Virus record (IMG/VR): IMGVR_UViG_648276671_000015 | DNA from: a virus | Lineage: Duplodnaviria; Heunggongvirae; Uroviricota; Caudoviricetes | Direction: 5' to 3' (one strand) | DNA length: 11,195 bases | Shown: piece by piece, positions 1 to 11,195 of the stretch | Layout: every line of letters starts with the position of its first letter | Position numbering within the stretch: position 1 is the stretch's first letter | Made by a program: the position numbers and the translations under genes | The notes under the pieces: model-generated | Told to the model about the DNA's origin: nothing | What the model saw: only the letters and a program-made list of their open reading frames with translations | Databases searched by the model: none

Positions 1-417
1 TTGTTTATATGTTTTAAAGGTTCCATAATCCGGGGCTGGTAATCCGGCATCGTTTGTGTTTCCTCTTTTGATAATGTCAGTGCCACTATTTACCCAGCTT
101 TCATCAAAATAGAAATTAATCGTTGCATCAGTCACAATCGTGGATCTTGACGGTAATCCATGAGCATGATCCTCCGTTGCATACCCCTGAATACTTAAAA
201 TAGAGCGACCTGTATCAATCCCCCGCCCGTCATCCCAGCCACGAATAAATTCACCGCGTAAATCAGGCAATTTATTAGTCGGGTAAGCCTTTGTCAGTTC
301 CGGGTATTCTTCAGCAGAAAAAGCCGCACCATTGCATTTCAGCCAGCCTGTTGGCGGAGTGGCTGAAGGCCACGGAACAGGCACCCCAACGGGTAATGCC
401 GAACCTTCTCCCAAACC
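1..417 (-). CDS. Partial tail-fibre variable (receptor-binding) cassette in silent inverted orientation; reads leftward from the crossover site and runs off the window start
   Basis: Minus-strand frame is open for about 139 codons from the gix-like site to position 1. Translation (...INVGLGEGSALPVGVPVPWPSATPPTGWLKCNGAAFSAEEYPELTKAYPTNKLPDLRGEFIRGWDDGRG...EDHAHG...) carries the tail-collar/tail-fibre motifs (GWLxCNG, YPEL, LPDLRGxF, HxH) seen in Mu S, P1 S and e14 StfE variable parts. It is opposite in strand to the tail operon and abuts the invertase, as for Mu Sv'. Confidence 0.6.
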
Positions 418-431
418 AACGTTTATGAAAA
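406..431. promoter_or_regulatory. gix/hix/pix-type 26-bp recombination (crossover) site for the adjacent serine invertase
   Basis: TTCTCCCAAACC-AA-CGTTTATGAAAA: two imperfect 12-bp inverted half-sites around a central AA, matching about 9/12 per half to the recalled hixL/gix consensus (TTCTTGAAAACC-AA-GGTTTTTGATAA). It lies 56 bp upstream of the invertase start and inside the tail-fibre cassette reading frame. Confidence 0.55.
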
Positions 432-486
432 TGCAGAGATAATGGCTAACTGGCATCATCCCCGGTTTTTATTCAGGGGATTGATC

Positions 487-1053
487 ATGCTTATTGGCTA
501 TGTACGCGTGTCAACAAATGACCAGAACACCGATTTGCAACGTAATGCACTGAACTGCGCGGGATGTGAGCGGATTTTTGAGGATAAAATCAGTGGCACT
601 AAGTCCGACAGACCGGGGCTTAAAAAACTGCTCAGGACACTATCGGCAGGAGACACTCTGGTTGTCTGGAAGCTGGACAGGTTGGGGCGCAGTATGCGGC
701 ATCTTGTTACGCTGATAGAAGAGTTGCGCCAGCGTGGCGTGAATTTCCGAAGCCTGACTGACAGTATTGATACCAGTACCCCAATGGGCCGTTTCTTTTT
801 TCATGTTATGGGTGCTCTGGCTGAAATGGAACGCGAACTGATAGTTGAACGTACCAGGGCAGGGCTGGCTGCAGCTCGTGCCAAAGGCAGAGTAGGTGGA
901 CGCCGTCCTAAGTTGACCACCGAACAGTGGGCACAGATTGGGCGTTTACTTGAGGCCGGAGAATCAAGACAGCGTATTGCACTGATTTTTGATGTAGGCG
1001 TTTCTACTATTTATAGAAAATTTCCGGCAAATAAGAGCAATGAATCTCCCTGA
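487..1053 (+). CDS. pin: Serine DNA invertase of the Pin/Gin/Hin/Cin family (188 aa)
   Basis: Starts MLIGYVRVSTNDQNTDLQ with the catalytic serine in the YVRVSTxDQ motif, then LVVWKLDRLGRS and GRFFFHVMGALAEMERELI, and a C-terminal helix-turn-helix; near-identical in motif layout to e14 PinE / Mu Gin. GGGGA Shine-Dalgarno 8 nt upstream of the ATG at 487. The tracked ORF start at 442 is an upstream in-frame extension. Confidence 0.92.
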   Translation: MLIGYVRVSTNDQNTDLQRNALNCAGCERIFEDKISGTKSDRPGLKKLLRTLSAGDTLVVWKLDRLGRSMRHLVTLIEELRQRGVNFRSLTDSIDTSTPMGRFFFHVMGALAEMERELIVERTRAGLAAARAKGRVGGRRPKLTTEQWAQIGRLLEAGESRQRIALIFDVGVSTIYRKFPANKSNESP

Positions 1054-1101
1054 ATCAGCATTATTTTGATTATCCCTGCAAGCAGACAAATACCGTCATT
1101 T

Positions 1102-1119
1102 TGTGTGAATAACGGCACA
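1102..1119 (+). promoter_or_regulatory. Candidate Ogr-dependent late promoter element (TGT-N12-ACA) for the FI tail operon
   Basis: TGTgtgaataacggcACA has the exact TGT-N12-ACA dyad of P2 late promoters and sits about 75-95 bp upstream of the FI start at 1196, consistent with a position near -55. The -10 element is not clearly identifiable. Confidence 0.4.
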
Positions 1120-1195
1120 ACTGCGCTTAGCTGTTTGTCAGGCACAATCACTTCAACATAGGGCGAAGCCTAATCCAATCAGGAGGTTCGCCACT

Positions 1196-2355
1196 ATGGC
1201 TCAGGATTACCACCACGGGGTGCGCGTTGTTGAAGTCAACGAAGGCACCCGATCCATTACCACGGTGAGCACCGCCATCGTGGGTATGGTCTGCACGGGC
1301 GATGATGCCGATGCAAAAATGTTTCCTCTTAATAAACCCGTGCTGATCACTGATGTGCTGACTGCCAGCGGTAAAGCGGGTGAGTCAGGCACGCTGGCCC
1401 GTTCGCTGGATGCCATCGCTGACCAGGCAAAACCCGTGACCGTTGTTGTGCGTGTGCCGCAGGGTGAAACGGAAGAAGAAACCACGACCAATATCATCGG
1501 CGCAGTGACTGCTGAAGGTAAAAAACAGGCATGAAAGCTCTGTTATCTGCCCAGTCACAGCTCGGCGTTAAACCGCGCATTCTCGGCGTGCCAGGCCATG
1601 ATAACAAAGCCGTTGCGACTGAGTTGCTGAGCGTGGCGCAAAGCCTGCGTGGGTTTGCTTACCTGTCAGCGTATGGCTGCAAGACAGTGCAGGAGGCGAT
1701 CACTTACCGTGAAAACTTCAGTCAGCGTGAAGGAATGCTGATCTGGCCCGACTTTACTGGCTGGGACACGGTGCTGAATGCCGAAGCAACGGCTTATGCC
1801 ACCGCCCGTGCGCTTGGTCTGCGCGCCAAAATTGACGAGCAGACCGGATGGCACAAAAGCCTGTCCAACGTGGGCGTTAACGGTGTCACCGGAATTTCTG
1901 CTGATGTGTTCTGGGATCTGCAGGACCCGGCAACCGATGCAGGTCTGCTGAACCAGAACGACGTCACCACGCTTGTGCGTAAAGACGGTTTCCGCTTCTG
2001 GGGTTCCCGCTGCCTGAGTGATGACCCGCTCTTTGCCTTCGAAAACTACACCCGCACGGCACAGGTGCTGGCGGACACAATGGCAGAAGCGCACATGTGG
2101 GCGGTGGACAAACCGCTGAACCCGTCGCTGGCCCGCGACATTATCGAAGGTATCCGCGCCAAAATGCGCAGCCTGGTCAGTCAGGGCTATCTCATTGGGG
2201 GTGATTGCTGGCTGGACGAGTCGGTGAACGATAAAGACACCCTGAAAGCCGGAAAACTCACCATCGACTACGACTACACGCCAGTGCCGCCACTTGAAAA
2301 TCTGATGCTGCGCCAGCGCATCACCGATCAGTACCTGGTGAATTTCGCCAGCTAG
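1196..2355 (+). pseudogene. P2 gpFI-like contractile tail sheath protein, frame broken by an apparent 1-bp loss in an A6 run (1520-1525); two ORFs 1196-1534 and 1531-2355
   Basis: N-terminal ORF (MAQDYHHGV...) and C-terminal ORF (...KPRILGVPG...GFRFWG...[13 protein letters not shown]) together span a P2 FI-like sheath. Adding one A to the run restores ...[10 protein letters not shown]..., which lines up with the P2 FI junction as I recall it (...GQYTGLKAML...). AGGAGG Shine-Dalgarno at 1181-1186. Confidence 0.8.
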
Positions 2356-2376
2356 GTCAGCGCGTAAGGGGACAAC

Positions 2377-2892
2377 ATGGCTTTACCACGTAAATTAAAA
2401 CATCTGAACTTGTTTAACGACGGGAACAACTGGCAGGGGATCGTTGAGTCGCTGACGCTGCCGAAATTCACCCGCAAATATGAGAAGTATCGCGGCGGCG
2501 GTATGCCGGGGGCGGTGGATGTGGATCTGGGACTGGATAACAGTGCATTGGATACAGAATTTTCCATTGGTGGTACTGAAGTGCTGCTGTTTAAGCAGAT
2601 GGGCAAAGCCACGGTGGATGGCATCCAGTTGCGCTTTACCGGCTCTATCCAGCGTGACGATACCGGAGAAGTGCAGGCCGTGGAGCTTGTGGTGCGTGGA
2701 CGTCACAAAGAAGTGGATTCCGGCGAGTGGAAGACGGGCGAAAGCAACACCACCAAAGTGACCAGTACCAACAGCTACGCGAAGCTGACCATCAATGGTG
2801 AGGTGCTCTATGAAGTGGACCTTATCAACATGGTGGAAATTGTGGACGGTGTGGACCTGATGGAAGCGCACCGCAACGCCCTCGGCCTCTGA
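2377..2892 (+). CDS. P2 gpFII-like tail tube protein (171 aa)
   Basis: Size and position immediately after the sheath gene match P2 FII (about 172 aa); Shine-Dalgarno AAGGGGA upstream; sequence has the conserved tube-protein character (MALPRKLKHLNLFNDGNNWQG...). Confidence 0.85.
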   Translation: MALPRKLKHLNLFNDGNNWQGIVESLTLPKFTRKYEKYRGGGMPGAVDVDLGLDNSALDTEFSIGGTEVLLFKQMGKATVDGIQLRFTGSIQRDDTGEVQAVELVVRGRHKEVDSGEWKTGESNTTKVTSTNSYAKLTINGEVLYEVDLINMVEIVDGVDLMEAHRNALGL

Positions 2893-2903
2893 TATATCTG
2901 AAC

Positions 2904-2921
2904 GGCGCGGGATACCGCGCC
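2904..2921 (+). other. GC-rich stem-loop in the FII-E intergenic region (7-bp stem GGCGCGG/CCGCGCC, loop GATA), no U-tract
   Basis: Perfect inverted repeat read directly from the sequence, 12 nt after the FII stop codon and 26 nt before the E start. Confidence 0.5.
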
Positions 2922-2946
2922 AGAACCCAATTTACAGGACAGCAAA

Positions 2947-3249
2947 ATGAGCGATAAACAGACTGAAAAGACCATTCAACTGGATACCCCCATCAAGCGC
3001 GGTAAAACAGAAATCACCGAAATTGTGCTGCGTAAACCGCAGTCCGGTGCGCTGCGCGGTACACGCCTGCAGGCGATTATGGATATGGATGTGAACGCGA
3101 TGATGACCGTGATCCCCCGCATCTCCAGCCCGGCACTGACTGCACAGGAAATTGCAGAGATGGACCCGGCAGATCTCACTGCCATGTCGGTTGAGGTTGT
3201 CACTTTTTTGTTGAAGAAGTCGGTGCTTGCCGGTTTACCGACAGCCTGA
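2947..3249 (+). CDS. P2 gpE-like tail assembly chaperone (100 aa)
   Basis: Small acidic ORF between tube and tape-measure genes with a TTTTTTG slippery heptamer near its 3' end, as in P2 E and the lambda G analogue; AGGA Shine-Dalgarno 8 nt upstream. Confidence 0.85.
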   Translation: MSDKQTEKTIQLDTPIKRGKTEITEIVLRKPQSGALRGTRLQAIMDMDVNAMMTVIPRISSPALTAQEIAEMDPADLTAMSVEVVTFLLKKSVLAGLPTA

Positions 3250-3383
3250 CGGTTGACGATCTGGTGGCAGATATCGCCACCATTTTTCACTGGCCGCCAT
3301 CCGTTACTGACGTTATGCCGCTGACCGAAGTGCTGGAATGGCGGTATAAAGCGATTCAGAGAAGCGGGGCCAACGATGAGTGA
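2947..3383 (+). CDS. E+E' frameshift fusion product (about 145 aa) made by -1 slippage at 3204-3210
   Basis: The -1 frame after the heptamer reads ...VEEVGACRFTDSLTVDDLVADIATIFHWPPSVTDVMPLTEVLEWRYKAIQRSGANDE and ends overlapping the tape-measure start, the same layout and size as P2 E+E' (about 142 aa). Confidence 0.65.
3204..3210 (+). other. Programmed -1 ribosomal frameshift slippery heptamer T-TTT-TTG (E to E+E')
   Basis: Heptamer is in the X-XXY-YYZ register of the E frame (codons ACT-TTT-TTG = T-F-L); the -1 frame is open from here to a TGA at 3381-3383. Confidence 0.65.
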
Positions 3384-6300
3384 TAACAACCTGCGCCTGC
3401 AGGTCATTCTTAATGCGGTTGACAAACTCACCCGCCCATTCCGTGCTGCACAGGTCAGTTCGAAAGAGCTGGCTGGCGCAATCAGAAACTCCCGTGACGC
3501 ATTAAAGCAACTCAATCAGGCGGGTAACAGCCTGGAAAAATTTCGCAAGCTGCAGGCCGATAACAAGAAGTTAGGCGACAGGCTGAACTATGCCAGACAG
3601 AAGGCTAATTTGCTTAGCTCTGAGCTGGAGGCGATGGAACAACCATCACAACGGCACCTTGTGGCTTTAGGTCGGCAAACACTGGCAGTCCAACGCCTGG
3701 AAGAGCAACAAAAATATTTGCAGAAGCAAACGGCGCTTGTGCGTGCAGAACTGTACCGGGCGGGAATTTCTGCGAAAGATGATGCGGGAGCAACTGCCCG
3801 TTTAGCCCGTGAAACATCACGTTATAACCAGGAATTGTCGAAACAGGAGGTGCGGCTGAAGCGACTGGGGGAAGCTCAGCGCAGGATGAATGCAGCGCGT
3901 GCCAGTTATGCCCGTTCGCTGGAGGTGCGCGATCGTATTGCAGGAGCCGGAGCCACTACCACGGCTGCAGGGTTGGCAATGGGGACGCCAGTGATGGCGG
4001 CAGTAAAAAGCTATACCAGCATAGAAGATGCCATGAAAGGTGTGGCAAAGCAGGTCAATGGTCTGCGTGACGATAATGGCAACCGCACTGCACGTTTTTA
4101 TGAAATGCAGGATGCCATCAAGGCTGCCAGCGAACAGTTGCCGATGGAAAACGGTGCTGTGGACTTCGCTGCACTGGTTGAAGGTGGTGCGCGCATGAAC
4201 GTCGCAAACCCTGACGACAGCTGGGAAGACCAGAAACGTGATCTGCTGGCCTTCGCCAGCACAGCAGCAAAGGCGGCAACAGCCTTTGAGCTGCCAGCGG
4301 ATGAACTGTCAGAAAGTCTGGGGAAAATCGCCCAGCTCTACAAAATCCCTACCCGCAATATTGAACAGCTCGGTGATGCGCTGAACTATCTGGATGATAA
4401 CGCCATGTCGAAAGGGGCAGACATTATTGATGTTATGCAACGTCTGGGCGGTGTGGCGGACCGTCTGGATTATCGTAAAGCGGCGGCGCTGGGTTCCACC
4501 TTTCTGACACTGGGCGCTGCGCCGGAGGTTGCAGCCAGTGCAGCAAACGCGATGGTGCGTGAATTGTCCATTGCCACCATGCAGAGCAAGAGTTTCTTTG
4601 AAGGGATGAATCTGCTGAAACTCAATCCTGAAGTGATTGAAAAGCAGATGACGAAGGATGCGATGGGAACCATCCAGCGCGTGCTGGAGAAGGTGAACGC
4701 ACTGCCGCAGGACAAGCGTCTGTCTGCCATGACCATGTTGTTTGGTAAAGAGTTTGGCGATGACGCGGCGAAACTGGCAAACAACCTGCCGGAACTGCAG
4801 CGCCAGTTAAAGCTGACAGCGGGCAATGATGCGCTCGGTTCCATGCAGAAAGAATCCGACATCAACAAGGACTCACTTTCTGCTCAGTGGTTGCTGGTCA
4901 AAACCGGAGCGCAGAACACCTTCAGCAGCCTGGGCGAAACGCTGCGCCAGCCGCTGATGGATATTCTGTACACGGTGAAAAGCGTCACGGGGGCGTTGCG
5001 TCGCTGGGTGGAAGCTAACCCGGAACTGACGGGCACACTGATGAAAGCGGCGGCTGTTGTGGCTGCGGTTACCGTGGGCCTCGGCACCTTAGCGGTGGTG
5101 TTAGCTGCAGTGCTGGGGCCGCTGGCAGTCATCCGTCTGGGGTTCTCTGTGCTGGGTATCAAAACGTTACCTTCCGTTACGGCAGCAGTAACTCGAACCA
5201 GCAGCGCGTTGTCCTGGCTGGCTGGCGCACCACTGGCACTGCTGCGACGCGGGCTTGCTTCATCCGGCAACGCCGCAGGTTTACTTACTGCGCCGTTGTC
5301 GTCTTTGCGCCGCACGGCATCACTGACGGGAAATGTCCTGAAAACTGTAGCAGGTGCGCAGGTTGCACTTTTGCGGTCTGGATTATCCGGTTTACGTGCT
5401 GTTGCTGTGATGTTTATGAATCCTCTGGCGGTACTGCGCGGTGGACTGGCCGCCGCAGGCACGGTGCTGCGAGTACTGGCATCTGGTCCACTGGCGATGC
5501 TGCGCGTTGCCCTGTATGCCGTATCTGGTCTGTTAGGTGCTCTGCTCAGTCCGATAGGTCTTGTGGTTACTGCACTGGCGGGCGTGGCGCTGGTTGTCTG
5601 GAAATACTGGCAACCCATCACCGCATTTCTTGGTGGCGTGGTGGAAGGATTCAAAGCGGCGGCAGGTCCCGTCAGTGCAGCATTCGAACCGCTTATGCCC
5701 GTGTTCCAGTGGATTGGCGACAAAGTACAGGCGTTGTGGGGCTGGTTTACTGATCTGCTGACGCCCGTTAAGTCGACCTCTGCCGAACTGCAGAGTGCAG
5801 CGGCAATGGGGCGGCGATTCGGGGAGGCACTGGCGGAAGGGCTGAATATGGTCATGCATCCGCTGGACTCCCTGAAATCCGGCGTTTCCTGGTTGCTGGA
5901 GAAGCTCGGCATTGTCAGTAAAGAGGTCGCAAAGGCAAAACTGCCGGAAAGCGTGACGCGTCAGCAACCTGCGACGGTGAATGCAGACGGTAAAGTGATG
6001 ATGCCATCGGGTGGTTTTCCATCATGGGGATATGGCTTTGCGGGGATGTATGGCAGCGGCGGGTATATCCCGCGCGGGCAGTTTGGCATCGTCGGTGAAA
6101 ACGGGCCGGAAATTGTTAACGGCCCGGCAAATGTGACCAGCCGGAGAAATACAGCTGCACTGGCTGCCGTTGTTGCCGGAATGATGGGCGTTGCTGCCGC
6201 GCCAGCAGAGCTTCCACCGTTGCACCCTTTGGCACTTCCCGCGAAAGGTGGAGAAGCAATTGTGAGTCGCGCAGCCACTGTGCCGCTCGTTCAACGGATT

Positions 6301-6453
6301 GAGGCACCGACGCAGATCATCATTCAGACGCAGCCAGGACAAAGTGCGCAGGATATTGCGCGGGAGGTGGCACGCCAGCTTGATGAACGTGAACGCAGGC
6401 TGAAGGCAAAAGCCAGGAGTAACTACAGCGATCAGGGGGGATACGACGCATGA
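3376..6453 (+). CDS. Tail tape measure protein, P2 gpT-like (1025 aa)
   Basis: Very long ORF right after E/E'; coiled-coil-rich N-terminal half, central hydrophobic periodic repeats, Gly-rich C-terminal region; follows the chaperone gene as tape-measure genes always do. Confidence 0.9.
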   Translation: MSDNNLRLQVILNAVDKLTRPFRAAQVSSKELAGAIRNSRDALKQLNQAGNSLEKFRKLQADNKKLGDRLNYARQKANLLSSELEAMEQPSQRHLVALGRQTLAVQRLEEQQKYLQKQTALVRAELYRAGISAKDDAGATARLARETSRYNQELSKQEVRLKRLGEAQRRMNAARASYARSLEVRDRIAGAGATTTAAGLAMGTPVMAAVKSYTSIEDAMKGVAKQVNGLRDDNGNRTARFYEMQDAIKAASEQLPMENGAVDFAALVEGGARMNVANPDDSWEDQKRDLLAFASTAAKAATAFELPADELSESLGKIAQLYKIPTRNIEQLGDALNYLDDNAMSKGADIIDVMQRLGGVADRLDYRKAAALGSTFLTLGAAPEVAASAANAMVRELSIATMQSKSFFEGMNLLKLNPEVIEKQMTKDAMGTIQRVLEKVNALPQDKRLSAMTMLFGKEFGDDAAKLANNLPELQRQLKLTAGNDALGSMQKESDINKDSLSAQWLLVKTGAQNTFSSLGETLRQPLMDILYTVKSVTGALRRWVEANPELTGTLMKAAAVVAAVTVGLGTLAVVLAAVLGPLAVIRLGFSVLGIKTLPSVTAAVTRTSSALSWLAGAPLALLRRGLASSGNAAGLLTAPLSSLRRTASLTGNVLKTVAGAQVALLRSGLSGLRAVAVMFMNPLAVLRGGLAAAGTVLRVLASGPLAMLRVALYAVSGLLGALLSPIGLVVTALAGVALVVWKYWQPITAFLGGVVEGFKAAAGPVSAAFEPLMPVFQWIGDKVQALWGWFTDLLTPVKSTSAELQSAAAMGRRFGEALAEGLNMVMHPLDSLKSGVSWLLEKLGIVSKEVAKAKLPESVTRQQPATVNADGKVMMPSGGFPSWGYGFAGMYGSGGYIPRGQFGIVGENGPEIVNGPANVTSRRNTAALAAVVAGMMGVAAAPAELPPLHPLALPAKGGEAIVSRAATVPLVQRIEAPTQIIIQTQPGQSAQDIAREVARQLDERERRLKAKARSNYSDQGGYDA

Positions 6454-6935
6454 TGATGGTGCTGGGATTGTACGTGTTTATGCTGCGCACCGTTCCGTAT
6501 CAGGAACTGCAGTATCAACGCAGCTGGCGACATGCGGCAAACAGTCGGGTAAACCGACGTCCGTCCACGCAGTTTCTGGGACCGGAAAACGACATGCTGA
6601 CGCTTTCCGGTGTTCTTATGCCGGAGATAACAGGCGGCAGGCTGTCGTTGCTGGCACTGGAGCAGATGGCAGAACAGGGGAAAGCATGGCCCCTGATTGA
6701 AGGCAGCGGCACGATTTACGGCATGTATGTGATTGAGGGACTGAATCAGACTAAAACGGAGTTTTTCCGCGACGGTATGCCGCGCCGGATTGAGTTCACC
6801 CTGTCGCTCAAACGAGTGGATGAATCCCTGTCCGATATGTTCGGTGATCTCAGTGCGCAACTGAATAATCTGCAGGACACGGCAACGTCTGCCTTAAGCG
6901 ATATCAGTAAAACGGTGGGAGGGCTGCTGTCGTGA
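6450..6935 (+). CDS. P2 gpU-like tail protein (161 aa)
   Basis: ATGA overlap with the T stop; GGGGGG Shine-Dalgarno 9 nt upstream; begins MMMVLGLYVFMLRT..., resembling the P2 U N-terminus as recalled (MMLALGMFVF...); size matches P2 U (about 159 aa). Confidence 0.85.
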   Translation: MMMVLGLYVFMLRTVPYQELQYQRSWRHAANSRVNRRPSTQFLGPENDMLTLSGVLMPEITGGRLSLLALEQMAEQGKAWPLIEGSGTIYGMYVIEGLNQTKTEFFRDGMPRRIEFTLSLKRVDESLSDMFGDLSAQLNNLQDTATSALSDISKTVGGLLS

Positions 6936-8032
6936 ATTTCAGCTCTGAACTGCTTAACAAAGGCAACAAAACTCCCGCATTCAGCATCAGTATTGAGGGC
7001 AGGGATATCACCACTGTGCTGGATAACCGCCTGATGAGTTTGACGCTGACGGATAACCGGGGCTTTGAAGCGGACCAGCTTGATCTGGAGCTGGATGACG
7101 CTGACGGAAAAATCGTGCTGCCGCGCCGTGGTGCGGTTATTACGCTGGCGCTGGGCTGGAAGGGGCAGCCGCTTTTCCCGAAAGGGGCATTCACGGTGGA
7201 CGAGATTGAACACACTGGCGCACCGGACCGCCTGACTATCCGGGCGCGAAGTGCTGATTTTCGGGAAACGCTGAATACTCGCCGTGAAAAATCGTGGCAC
7301 AAGACCACTGTCGGGGAAGTGGTGAAGGAAATAGCCGCGCGTCACAAGCTGAAGATGGCACTGGGTAAAGACCTGTCGGATAAGCCCGTGGAACATATAG
7401 ACCAGACTAATGAGAGTGACGGCAGTTTTCTGATGCGGCTGGCGCGCCAGTACGGTGCTATTGCGTCGGTGAAAAATGGCAATCTGTTATTCATTCGGCA
7501 GGGACAGGGTAAAAGCGCCAGCGGTAAACCACTGCCGGTTATCACTATCACACGTAAGGACGGCGACAGTCACCGCTTTACCCTGGCAGATCGCGGAGCT
7601 TACACGGGCGTAATTGCCAGCTGGTTGCATACCCGCGAACCCGCGAAGAAAGAAAGCACCACGGTGAAGCGTAAGCGCAGGACTAAGAAGCAGAAGAAAG
7701 AGCCGGAAGCGAAGCAGGGCGATTACCTGGTGGGTACGGATGAAAACGTGCTGGTACTTAATCGCACCTATGCCAATCGGAGTAACGCCGAACGGGCAGC
7801 GAAAATGCAGTGGGAACGCCTGCAACGCGGCGTTGCGTCATTCTCGCTACAACTGGCGGAAGGTCGGGCAGATCTCTACACGGAAATGCCAGTGAAAGTC
7901 AGTGGTTTTAAACAGCCGATAGATGATGCGGAATGGACCATTACGACTCTGACACATACCGTCAGCCCGGATAACGGTTTTACAACCAGTCTGGAGCTTG
8001 AAGTGAGGATTGATGATTTCGAAATGGAATGA
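6932..8032 (+). CDS. P2 gpD-like tail protein (366 aa), GTG start
   Basis: GTGA start/stop overlap with U; GGAGGG Shine-Dalgarno; motifs (TLTDNRGFEADQLDLELDD, IRARSADFRETLNTRREKSWH, Lys-rich linker, WTIT..H) typical of P2 D. Confidence 0.85.
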   Translation: MNFSSELLNKGNKTPAFSISIEGRDITTVLDNRLMSLTLTDNRGFEADQLDLELDDADGKIVLPRRGAVITLALGWKGQPLFPKGAFTVDEIEHTGAPDRLTIRARSADFRETLNTRREKSWHKTTVGEVVKEIAARHKLKMALGKDLSDKPVEHIDQTNESDGSFLMRLARQYGAIASVKNGNLLFIRQGQGKSASGKPLPVITITRKDGDSHRFTLADRGAYTGVIASWLHTREPAKKESTTVKRKRRTKKQKKEPEAKQGDYLVGTDENVLVLNRTYANRSNAERAAKMQWERLQRGVASFSLQLAEGRADLYTEMPVKVSGFKQPIDDAEWTITTLTHTVSPDNGFTTSLELEVRIDDFEME

Positions 8033-8122
8033 TTCTTCGCAATGGAGAACTTTTAAGTTTGCAAAATGGAATAATGCGGTATCATTATTGTGAATTTAGC
8101 AAAAATGGGGAGAACTCGAAAA

Positions 8123-8341
8123 ATGATGATTTGCCCACTATGTGGAAGTGCCGCCCATACTCGCAGCAGTTTTCAGGTATCTTCATTGACCAAAGAGCGT
8201 TACAACCAGTGCCAGAACATTAACTGCAGCCATACTTTTGTTACCCATGAAACTTTTGTTCGTTCGATTGCAACGCCAAAAGAGTCAAATCCGGTTCAGC
8301 CGCATCCAATGAAATCAGGACAGGTGGCGCTCTCTCTTTGA
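8123..8341 (+). CDS. ogr: Ogr-type zinc-finger late-gene transcriptional activator (72 aa)
   Basis: MMICPLCGSAAHTR...YNQCQNINCSHTF has the C-x2-C...C-x4-C zinc-binding pattern and the size of P2 Ogr (72 aa). The tracked ORF start at 8090 is an upstream extension; the ATG at 8123 has GGGGA about 11 nt upstream. Confidence 0.85.
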   Translation: MMICPLCGSAAHTRSSFQVSSLTKERYNQCQNINCSHTFVTHETFVRSIATPKESNPVQPHPMKSGQVALSL

Positions 8342-8576
8342 CGCTGCCGCCATTTTGTCGCCATCGTTAAAAAACAGTGCTTCTAACATCATGATTTTAA
8401 AAGGCATAAATTTTAGGCAACAAAAAACCCACCAACCTTGAACCGAAATGGCGGGGTTGATGGGCTCCACAAAATGGGGACATCAAAGAAAAGCAGTGGC
8501 ATTAATTAAGACTGATGCCCTGCGGAAAAGTTCTGCGGTTGTGCAAAAAAATTTCATTTTCAGGGCAACTTCAGTT

Positions 8577-10262
8577 TTATCCTAATCCTGGCCATACCAT
8601 GACGATGATTGTCCCTGCCAGCGTCAGCAGGACGTTGGCGATTGCGTAAGTGCCCGCATAGCCCAACGCCGGGATGTTACTGCGAGCTGTATCACTGATG
8701 ATCTCCATTGCCGGCGCGCAGGTGCGTGCGCCCATCATTGCGCCGAACAACAGTGCGCGGTTCATTCGCAATACATAAGCACCGAACAAGAAACAGATAA
8801 CCACGGGCACCAGACTGACAATCAATCCGGCAATCAACATTTGACCGCCAATCGCGCCCAGGCCGTTATTAATACCGCTACCAGCGCTCAGACCAACGCC
8901 TGCCATAAACACCATCAAGCCGAACTCCTTCACCATGCTTAATGCACCCTGCGGAATGTAACCGAAGGTCGGGTGGTTAGCACGCATAAAGCCCAGCATA
9001 ATTCCGGCGAATAACAACCCGGCAGCGTTCCCCATACCGAAACTGAATGTGCTGAACTGGAAGGTGATCATCCCGATCATTAGCCCAATCACAAAGAAGG
9101 CGCAGAATGCCAGCAAGTCAGTGACCTGGCTGTGAATCGAGATAAAGCCGATGCGATCGGCGATGGTTTTTACGCGGCGGGCATCGCCGCTGACTTGTAA
9201 AACGTCACCTTTGTTAAGCACGACGTTGTCATCAATCGGCATCTCAATCTGGCTACGTATGACGCGGTTAAGGAAGCAACCGTGATCGGTCAACTTCAGT
9301 TGTGCCAGGCGTTTGCCAACAGCGTTATGGTTTTTAACGACCACTTCTTCAGTGACGATACGCATGTCGAGAAGGTCACGATCGAAAACTTCTTTGCCAT
9401 TACGGAAACTGGGATCGAGTCGGGCGTGGGCGTCGGGGTAGCCTACCAACGCTATTTCATCGCCCATTTGTAGCACGGCATCACCGTCTGGATTTGCCAG
9501 AATCCCGTTACGCCGAATACGTTCAATGTAGCAGCCGGTTTGTCGATAAATACCCAGTTCACGCAGATTTTTGCCGTCGGTCCAGGCTACCAGCTCCGGG
9601 CCGACGCGGTAGGCGCGGATCACCGGCAAATAAACTTTACGGTTGGCATCTGTGTCCAGGCCACGTTCGCGGGCGATTTGCTGGGCGCTGGTCTGTAAGT
9701 CCTGATGCTGCAATTTCGGCAAGTAACGCGCACCAACAATCAAACTCACCAGACCGATTAAATAGGTTAAGGCATACCCGAGGCTCAGATTATCCAGTGC
9801 CAGTGAGAGCTGCCTGCTTTCCATGCCGGAATGACGCAGTGTATCGCCAGCACCGACCAAAACCGGTGTTGACGTCATAGAGCCTGCTAACATACCGGCC
9901 GTCAGGCCAATATCCCAGCCAAACAGCTTACCTAACCCTAAGGCGATCACCAGCGCACTGCCAACCATCACCAGTGCTAACATTAGGTAATTTTTCCCAT
10001 CGCGAAAAAAAATGGAAAAAAAGTTCGGTCCGGCTTCGACCCCGACGCAGAAAATAAACAGCATAAAGCCAAGATTAAGCGCGTCGGTGTTAATGCTGAA
10101 ATGTTGTTGGCCTAATAACAGCGATACGACTAAAACGCCAATGGAATTACCCAGTTGGATCGAACCAAGTCGTAATTTCCCGAGACATAGCCCAAGCGCG
10201 AGGACCACAAATAATAACAGAATGTAATTCCCATTTAACAATTCGGCGACGTTTATATTCAC
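8577..10262 (-). CDS. ybjL: YbjL, putative AAE-family transporter (561 aa; two transmembrane halves flanking cytoplasmic TrkA-C-like domains), GTG start
   Basis: Full-length 561-aa membrane protein matching E. coli YbjL in length and sequence as I recall it; gene neighbourhood (ybjL-ybjM-grxA) is the conserved E. coli arrangement. Confidence 0.9.
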
Positions 10263-10531
10263 GGAGGCTAACTTCTTGTTTACTAGTAAGCTGTTGAAAG
10301 AAATGGTAATTTACGATAATGTTTTTTACCAGAATTCAGGGCGCAGATTCATTCAGCGCACCTAAACGATAGTAAAGTAACAATATATTTTACTAGTGTA
10401 ATCACATTAGGTATCAACGGCTATATGAATTGCGTTGGCCTATATTAGCATGGAATGCGAAGCGGCTTTATCTTACTGAACGCCACACTGGCGAAAAATG
10501 TGTTCGATAGACGCAGTGTCAGGAGGAACGA

Positions 10532-10908
10532 GTGAAACATAAACAACGTTGGGCGGGGGCAATCTGCTGTTTTGTCCTCTTCATTGTGGTGTGCCTTTTT
10601 CTGGCGACGCATATGAAAGGCGCTTTTCGGGCTGCCGGGCATCCTGAAATCGGCTTGCTGTTTTTCATTCTTCCTGGAGCAGTTGCCAGCTTCTTTTCAC
10701 AGCGTAGAGAAGTCCTGAAACCTCTGTTTGGCGCAATGCTGGCGGCACCCTGTTCAATGCTTATTATGCGGCTGTTTTTTCACCGACGCGCTCATTCTGG
10801 CAAGAGCTGGCATGGTTATTAAGTGCGGTGTTCTGGTGTGCGCTGGGGGCACTGTGTTTCTTATTTATCAGTAGTTTGTTTAAACCACAGCACAGAAAAA
10901 ATCAATAA
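10532..10908 (+). pseudogene. ybjM: ybjM inner-membrane protein, frame broken by an apparent 1-bp loss in a T6 run (10775-10780); tracked ORF ends early at 10822 (96 aa)
   Basis: GTG start with AGGAGGA Shine-Dalgarno. After the T-run, the +1 frame reads SPTRSFWQELAWLLSAVFWCALGALCFLFISSLFKPQHRKNQ* and ends at 10906-10908 directly before the terminator hairpin. Adding one T gives exactly 125 aa plus stop, the length I recall for E. coli YbjM. Confidence 0.7.
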
Positions 10909-10927
10909 AGCCCTCAACGCGAGGGCT
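10909..10927 (-). terminator. Rho-independent terminator hairpin for grxA, shared by convergent ybjM
   Basis: AGCCCTC-AACGC-GAGGGCT, a 7-bp stem with 5-nt loop, 10 nt past the grxA stop; on the minus strand it is followed by a U-rich tract (plus 10895-10908 is A-rich). Confidence 0.65.
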
Positions 10928-10937
10928 TGTCAGACGA

Positions 10938-11195
10938 TCAGGCGTCCAGATTCTCTTTCACCCATGCAGCAAAATCGGTATAGCCGCCGATATGTTGCTG
11001 ATCGACAAAAATCTGCGGCACGGTTTCTACGGGTTTACCTGCCTTTTGTTGTAGATCTTCTTTAGTGATCCCTTCCGCACGAATATCAACATACTGATAC
11101 TGAAAATCATCGCGTTCATTGCTCAATTTCTCAGCCAGATCTTTTGCACGCACACAGTAAGGGCAACCCGGACGACCAAAAATAACGGTTTGCAT
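10938..11195 (-). CDS. grxA: Glutaredoxin 1 (85 aa), complete; the window ends on its start codon
   Basis: MQTVIFGRPGCPYCVRAKDLAEKL... has the CPYC glutaredoxin active site and the exact length of E. coli GrxA. Confidence 0.95.
   Translation of the reverse strand: MQTVIFGRPGCPYCVRAKDLAEKLSNERDDFQYQYVDIRAEGITKEDLQQKAGKPVETVPQIFVDQQHIGGYTDFAAWVKENLDA

Follow-up and report, generated by a model that had tools for sequence, protein, structure and literature searches.

A P2-like prophage of Escherichia coli TA280 with its tail sheath gene split at a run of six adenines that is probably a miscalled run of seven

The DNA analyzed here, referred to as the window, is a stretch of 11,195 nucleotides that is wholly contained in scaffold GL884339.1 of the 2010 Broad Institute draft genome of E. 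coli TA280 (GCA_000176655.2) and starts 2 nt past an N gap in that scaffold. The exact FII and T proteins of the window were found only in this scaffold of GCA_000176655.2. TA280 was isolated from an animal and belongs to the "Escherichia antibiotic resistance" genomes of the Broad Institute (PMC4422515), and it has been listed among mammalian commensals (bioRxiv 10.1101/2020.05.25.114553). The host flank in the window consisted of ybjL, ybjM, and grxA of E. coli and showed 99.7% identity with strain E300010. Judged from its sequence, the prophage is P2-like (Peduoviridae) and integrated beside ybjL. The sheath segment matched 982 of 5426 complete E. coli genomes at a coverage of at least 80%; the sheath gene, the prophage type, and the integration beside ybjL are all common. 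Among RefSeq complete E. coli genomes there was no near-identical copy of the TA280 prophage, the best match being 97.8%.

The sheath gene occupied the same position in the F operon as in P2 (FI, FII, E/E', T, U, D, ogr) and was present as two open reading frames, with the following features.

1196-1534, + strand: 5' sheath fragment of 112 aa, consisting of residues 1-110 of the intact protein and then Q, A, and a stop codon (ends AEGKKQA-stop)
1520-1525, + strand: A6 homopolymer, A7 in intact relatives; the single base that splits the gene
1531-2355, + strand: 3' sheath fragment of 274 aa, residues 113-386 of the intact protein (MKALLSAQ to NFAS-stop)
2353-2355, + strand: premature stop codon TAG, private to the window; CAG (Gln387) in 13 of 13 relatives, so that the last four residues, QVSA, are lost
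2365-2367, + strand: ancestral stop codon TAA, the end of the 390-aa sheath

A preliminary description of this DNA had placed the A6 run at 1520-1525 and an overlap of the two frames at 1531-1534, and both were confirmed in the sequence. The overlap is an ATGA, in which the ATG of the 3' fragment overlaps the TGA of the 5' fragment. A Shine-Dalgarno sequence, CAGGAGG, was located at 1181-1187, and a TGT-N12-ACA dyad, TGTGTGAATAACGGCACA, at 1102-1119, approximately 77-94 nt upstream of the sheath ATG. The dyad was nearly the same in phage Cartapus and has the form of the Ogr-dependent activator sites of P2 late promoters, and so it was regarded as a putative site of this kind. Because the dyad and the Shine-Dalgarno sequence were both present, the expression signals of the F operon look intact.

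Megablast of positions 1196-2355 against phage records gave 56 matches, none with a query coverage below 80%. The best matches, Escherichia phage Cartapus (97.2%), phage 500465-1 (96.7%), and Klebsiella phage KP12 (96.3%), were each one base longer than the query and each contained a single CDS of 1173 nt encoding 390 aa, annotated as tail sheath or P2 gpFI-like. Compared with these three phages (96-97% identity), the window lacked one A of the A7 run, and this was the sole gap in the stretch. When one A was inserted into the window sequence, a stretch of 12 residues at the junction became the same as in the relatives, and the repaired sheath differed from those of Cartapus and of E. coli WAT, in which a prophage of this type also adjoins ybjL, at 2 residues plus the early stop. 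The repaired protein showed three Pfam domains: Gp18_domIII_N (residues 27-87; 43.4 bits against a cut-off of 27), Phage_sheath_1 (108-273; 113.4 against 31.4), and Phage_sheath_1C (275-377; 83.7 against 26.9). The first was on the 5' fragment and the other two were on the 3' fragment. By these sequence comparisons, the split gene is a P2-gpFI-type contractile tail sheath gene, and the resemblance is not by chance.

The A7 run of the relatives and the Pfam domains of the repaired protein thus bore out the earlier view that a gpFI-type sheath gene is split by a one-base homopolymer difference. As deposited, the locus encoded 112 + 274 aa, and an uninterrupted frame of approximately 390 aa was obtained only with one A added. 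The fused sheath of about 386 aa given in the preliminary description was correct in that one additional A fuses the two frames; the length of 386 aa arises only through the TAG at 2353, and the ancestral length is 390 aa. A ten-residue junction that had been described as matching P2 FI instead matched the Cartapus-type 390-aa sheaths, P2 reading GQYTGLKAML at this point.

The relatives compared at codon 387 comprised the three phage records with A7 and ten loci with A6, and the TAG was one of five window-private sites in the sheath gene. In exact look-ups, neither the repaired 386-aa nor the 390-aa window allele was found in the sequence collection, which thus offered no second assembly of this allele for comparison. 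A Logan contig assembled from the raw run SRR024214 was the same as window positions 427-2352 exactly, including the A6 run and four of the five private SNPs, and we therefore consider that this run came from TA280. The last base of the contig was 2352, directly in front of the T of the TAG, suggesting that the reads were ambiguous or thin at base 2353. No intact FII or T product of the window sequence was found in Logan; the Logan assembly of this run appears fragmented here, which is indirect evidence of noisy or shallow reads.

A6 is thus the majority call in SRR024214 as well as the call in the deposited scaffold. Such agreement would be expected if the A7 run had suffered a real, recent slipped-strand deletion, which would leave the sheath fragmented or absent and the prophage defective, with no contractile tail; FI is an essential tail gene in established P2 genetics. 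The run and the deposited assembly probably share the same reads, so the agreement of the two calls is weak evidence. A real deletion would also be in keeping with the TAG at 2353, a private truncating change in the same gene that is a substitution and not a typical homopolymer error, and two lesions in one gene could mean relaxed selection. When the repaired sheath was compared with those of Cartapus and WAT, however, 30 changes were synonymous and 2 non-synonymous (dN/dS 0.02), the 5' fragment having no non-synonymous change. The invertase, FII, E, T, U, D, and ogr genes were full length, as in the relatives, and free of internal stops, and the 39-aa GpE/E' open reading frame was called in the source scaffold. 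These data agreed with the preliminary description, in which the neighboring genes had been considered intact and the lesion recent if real. From the low dN/dS and the intact neighbors, the lesion, if real, would be very recent at most, and nothing else in the sequence marks the tail module as decaying, a point in favor of a miscall.

Several features were observed around the prophage. Just left of the window, the TA280 scaffold contained N gaps at 5020-5885 and 7556-7622 (scaffold coordinates) and an IS3-family element with an rve transposase (5886-6563) and an HTH_Tnp_1 domain (6752-7099). The element and both gaps sat between the tail-fibre gene and the invertase gene, and the tail-fibre region of TA280 may be disrupted or mis-scaffolded. 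Directly upstream of the invertase gene, at window positions 406-431, the sequence TTCTCCCAAACCAACGTTTATGAAAA resembles a Hin/Gin-type crossover site (putative). The SRR024214 contig began at window position 427, inside this site; the contig break and the N gap before the window are both compatible with inversion of a tail-fibre segment, both orientations being present, or with a repeat of the site. In E. coli E300010, a P2-like remnant was located at the same ybjL-adjacent site (locus positions 4513-12042), where the head genes, a truncated lysozyme gene, and ogr were kept and the whole tail module was absent; a retron St85 system and IS100 adjoined the remnant.

To the extent that a real deletion is considered, the IS3-family element with the two scaffold gaps in the upstream tail-fibre region and the decayed P2-like remnant at the same chromosomal site in another strain are points in its favor. 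It would, however, require a second independent event within the same 11 kb. For an indel census, window positions 221-11195 were aligned with the syntenic stretch of the WAT genome. In approximately 10,975 aligned columns there were 239 substitutions and two internal indels only. Both were contractions of a single-base run from seven to six, and each broke a reading frame. The one other than the sheath A-run was in ybjM, approximately 9 kb away.

10532-10822, + strand: ybjM truncated by the T6 run to 96 aa; normally 125 aa, with the ancestral stop codon at 10906-10908
10775-10780, + strand: T6 homopolymer in ybjM, where the compared E. coli genomes have T7; apart from the sheath A-run, no further internal indel is present

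The ybjM gene, a core gene for a host inner-membrane protein, was found in 5420 of the 5426 complete E. coli genomes. With WAT as the reference, two of the four seven-base runs were contracted, and the A8 run, the two other A7 runs, and eight 6-base runs were unchanged. Scanning a further 5.2 kb of the TA280 scaffold revealed no run of seven or more bases, so this segment added no power to the homopolymer census. Outside the window, at approximately 19039 of the scaffold, ybjC had a deletion of 15 nt relative to the other E. coli genomes compared (90 versus 95 aa); since it keeps the frame, unlike both homopolymer changes, it looks like a natural polymorphism. In a non-mutator strain, it is very unlikely that two private deletions from seven to six bases, each breaking a frame, would really have occurred in 11 kb that show no other indel; in a flow-chemistry draft, two such contractions are unremarkable. 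The second contraction, in a host gene of the same window, was therefore one of the grounds on which we favored a miscall of A7 as A6 as the probable explanation of the sheath split.

According to this explanation, early draft chemistry would have undercounted long single-base runs, and the same type of miscall would have shortened the T7 run in ybjM. The DNA of the strain would then have no split; the prophage would encode an uninterrupted sheath of 386 or 390 aa and would have an intact tail module. The TA280 assembly, like the other 2010 Broad E. coli drafts, was probably made from 454 reads with Newbler. The one-base difference, the ybjM contraction, the recurrence of both on unrelated backgrounds, and the absence of decay are observations; we infer that the cause was base-calling rather than mutation, in a 454-based assembly.

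Another ground was the distribution of A6 in other assemblies. Outside TA280, 69 contigs and 111 blocks carried the exact 112-aa fragment, and the 3' fragment of other A6-bearing assemblies was 278 aa. In ten A6 loci that were fetched, the sheath alleles were 31-48 nt from the window and up to 55 nt from each other. A6 was present in two assemblies with accessions close to that of TA280, GCA_000176615.2 (GL884207.1) and GCA_000190835.1 (GL871807.1), whose sheath alleles were 38 and 34 nt, respectively, from the window and 35 nt from each other. As the alleles of these carriers were 34-38 nt apart, A6 did not follow the relatedness of the alleles. Further carriers among drafts of 2010-2012 were ADUK (strain 1827-70), which also had T6 changed to T5 in the invertase gene, AFDV, and AIGO. 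Two GenBank-only complete genomes carried A6 as well: CP042645, with 6 one-base indels in 4 kb, and CP121673, with several split tail genes. The recurrence of A6 on unrelated alleles, in assemblies of neighboring accession and in error-prone assemblies, argued for a miscall and against a real frameshift. One A6 locus (L014) was the same as the Cartapus A7 allele over 1173 nt. Whether L014 and Cartapus represented the same prophage was considered and rejected, because there were 23 mismatches over 4.1 kb of the locus.

The T6 run of ybjM was distributed similarly. In other assemblies, 139 contigs and 178 blocks encoded the 96-aa product, and the carriers were 24-55 substitutions from the window across 3.3 kb. 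Inheritance of T6 from these relatives was ruled against, since they were that distant and the nearest host flank, that of E300010 (14 substitutions in 3.3 kb), had T7. Further homopolymer indels occurred within the 3.3 kb in 6 of 10 T6 ybjM assemblies fetched. LB226692, an Ion Torrent assembly (PMC3140518), carried the same 96-aa product.

In cleaner data sets, both short runs were rare, in line with a miscall. A 91-mer containing A6 had no exact match in any of the 875 RefSeq complete-genome records holding the junction, which counted against a real frameshift, and a 91-mer containing T6 had none among 5422 matching RefSeq complete-genome records, this exact test being blind to records that combine A6 or T6 with an extra SNP. 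The best RefSeq matches to the junction differed from the A6 91-mer only by a one-base gap. In IMG/VR there were 2 A6 loci versus at least 119 A7 loci, the latter counted with a gapped pattern derived from the window. The exact A6 junction had no match in a contig collection of one genome per species, a result that was uninformative. The cluster of the intact 390-aa sheath held 5230 member sequences, and single alleles were present in at least 1000 contigs. Sheath homologues that are naturally two proteins with this breakpoint, which the preliminary description had raised as a case against its reading, did not emerge; an unsplit sheath of 390 aa overwhelmingly predominates.

Not all carriers were of poor quality, and a few (loci L008, L011, L140, and L143) looked like accurate assemblies. 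L008, a Logan contig of 78 kb assembled from a run of 2025, had A6; T6 in ybjM occurred without other indels in Logan contigs of 60-94 kb. AFDV01000032 (L010), deposited in 2011, and JBRSWZ010000017 (L011), deposited in 2025, both had A6 in prophages that were 99.0% identical, without gaps, over 4.1 kb. Such near-identical A6 prophages, deposited 14 years apart, suggest that the frameshift may be genuine and inherited in at least this one lineage. Real A7-to-A6 mutations probably exist in nature, and because A6 and T6 are present in accurate-looking data, the A7 sheath run and the T7 run of ybjM are probably natural slippage hotspots as well. As a plausible natural hotspot, the A7 run lends some weight to a deletion in TA280 itself. 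Across the assemblies compared, A6 and T6 calls appear to recur independently of phylogeny and to track assembly batch or quality, though not exclusively. Considering both sides, we regard a real slipped-strand deletion in TA280 as unlikely, though to be taken seriously, and a miscalled A7 as the probable cause of the split. Of the two outcomes that the preliminary description had left side by side, the defective prophage is therefore not secure, and the homopolymer error is the better supported, by the ybjM contraction and by the recurrence of A6.

The presence of A6 in 111 blocks of the collection is also a point for a split that would be real and yet tolerated or functional, through a two-piece sheath reinitiated at the ATGA and resembling TssB/TssC of T6SS, through -1 ribosomal or transcriptional slippage, or through a phase-variable A-run. 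The two fragments are joined by the ATGA stop/start overlap and together lack only T111 and G112, and the break is located between Pfam domains. As read from the sequence, slippage by -1 at AAA AAA C would restore exactly GKKTGMK. Indel rescue by frameshifting or slippage has been documented in general (PMC5009743). At a site like the sheath A-run, such rescue would be low-level, and this would be insufficient because the sheath is needed stoichiometrically and its N- and C-terminal strands interlock the subunits (PMC6088184). The reading frame is GGT AAA AAA CAG, in which a T precedes AAA AAA and there is no in-frame canonical X XXY YYZ heptamer. In a test of downstream RNA structure, none was stable (z = +0.73; 152 of 200 shuffles folded at least as well). 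The features of a programmed -1 frameshift were thus missing, and the gene of the relatives is unsplit. Seven bases are short for a contingency tract, and the IMG/VR counts given above differ from the phase-variable situation, in which both tract lengths are common. A6 was rare and tracked assembly quality, not lineage. A tolerated or functional split of any of these kinds in TA280 is accordingly extremely improbable in our estimation. We also considered, and find very doubtful, a more general form in which A7 would be a recurrent frameshift hotspot in a widespread allele and the ATGA-coupled pair of 112 + 274/278 aa would be tolerated, either in a TssB/TssC-like manner or by -1 slippage. If that were true, tail production in lysogens would be switched on and off, or kept up, although the gene is "broken".

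Under the favored explanation, a miscalled run, the split is probably not a real feature of the strain; if instead the deletion were real, it would represent an ordinary, very recent inactivation of a tail gene in a P2-like prophage. For annotation, caution is needed in that a prophage could be scored as defective, and the core gene ybjM as a pseudogene, from run lengths in an old draft. Because each of the two calls is found in more than 100 public assemblies, counts of pseudogenes and of "defective prophages" are inflated at these sites.

The locus was compared with known systems. The sheaths of Cartapus (YP_010663996.1, "P2 gpFI-like") and WAT (WP_000046134.1) have 97.1-97.2% nucleotide identity to the window and share its gene order of invertase, FI, FII, E, E', T, U, D, and ogr; unlike the window with its A6 run and its TAG in codon 387, they have A7 and one 390-aa frame ending in QVSA. 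P2 gpFI (NP_046778.1, 396 aa) resembles the window sheath in family, operon position, and homology along the whole length. It differs in a 6-residue insertion before the junction, in having no A-run at the GQYTGLKAML junction, and in its C-terminus, LVTSVNSN. The closest solved structure was the R-type pyocin sheath PA0622 (PDB 3j9q and others; E = 1e-67, residues 5-383). In the assembled pyocin sheath, the N- and C-terminal strands of neighboring subunits extend the beta-sheet of domain I to form an interwoven mesh (PMC6088184). PA0622, unlike the TA280 sheath, belongs to a bacteriocin particle and not to a phage tail, and the sequence identity is only moderate.

A programmed -1 frameshift is known in the same operon, that of P2 E/E', which is conserved in all relatives and gives two products by design. 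In the window, a conserved T6-G run (TTTTTTG) at 3204-3210, near the end of gene E, matched the annotated P2 E/E' -1 site and was followed by the GpE frame.

3264-3383: GpE frame of 39 aa, located after the T6-G run

Unlike the E/E' frameshift, the sheath split was not conserved and was without stimulatory signals. The remaining comparison was with the errors of 454, Ion Torrent, and unpolished nanopore or PacBio sequencing. The window departed from a uniform platform error in that its A8 run and two other A7 runs were called correctly. It resembled these errors in that the changes were one-base contractions at runs of seven that frameshifted conserved genes, and, as with platform errors, the contractions were several per short region and recurred at the same runs in unrelated assemblies.
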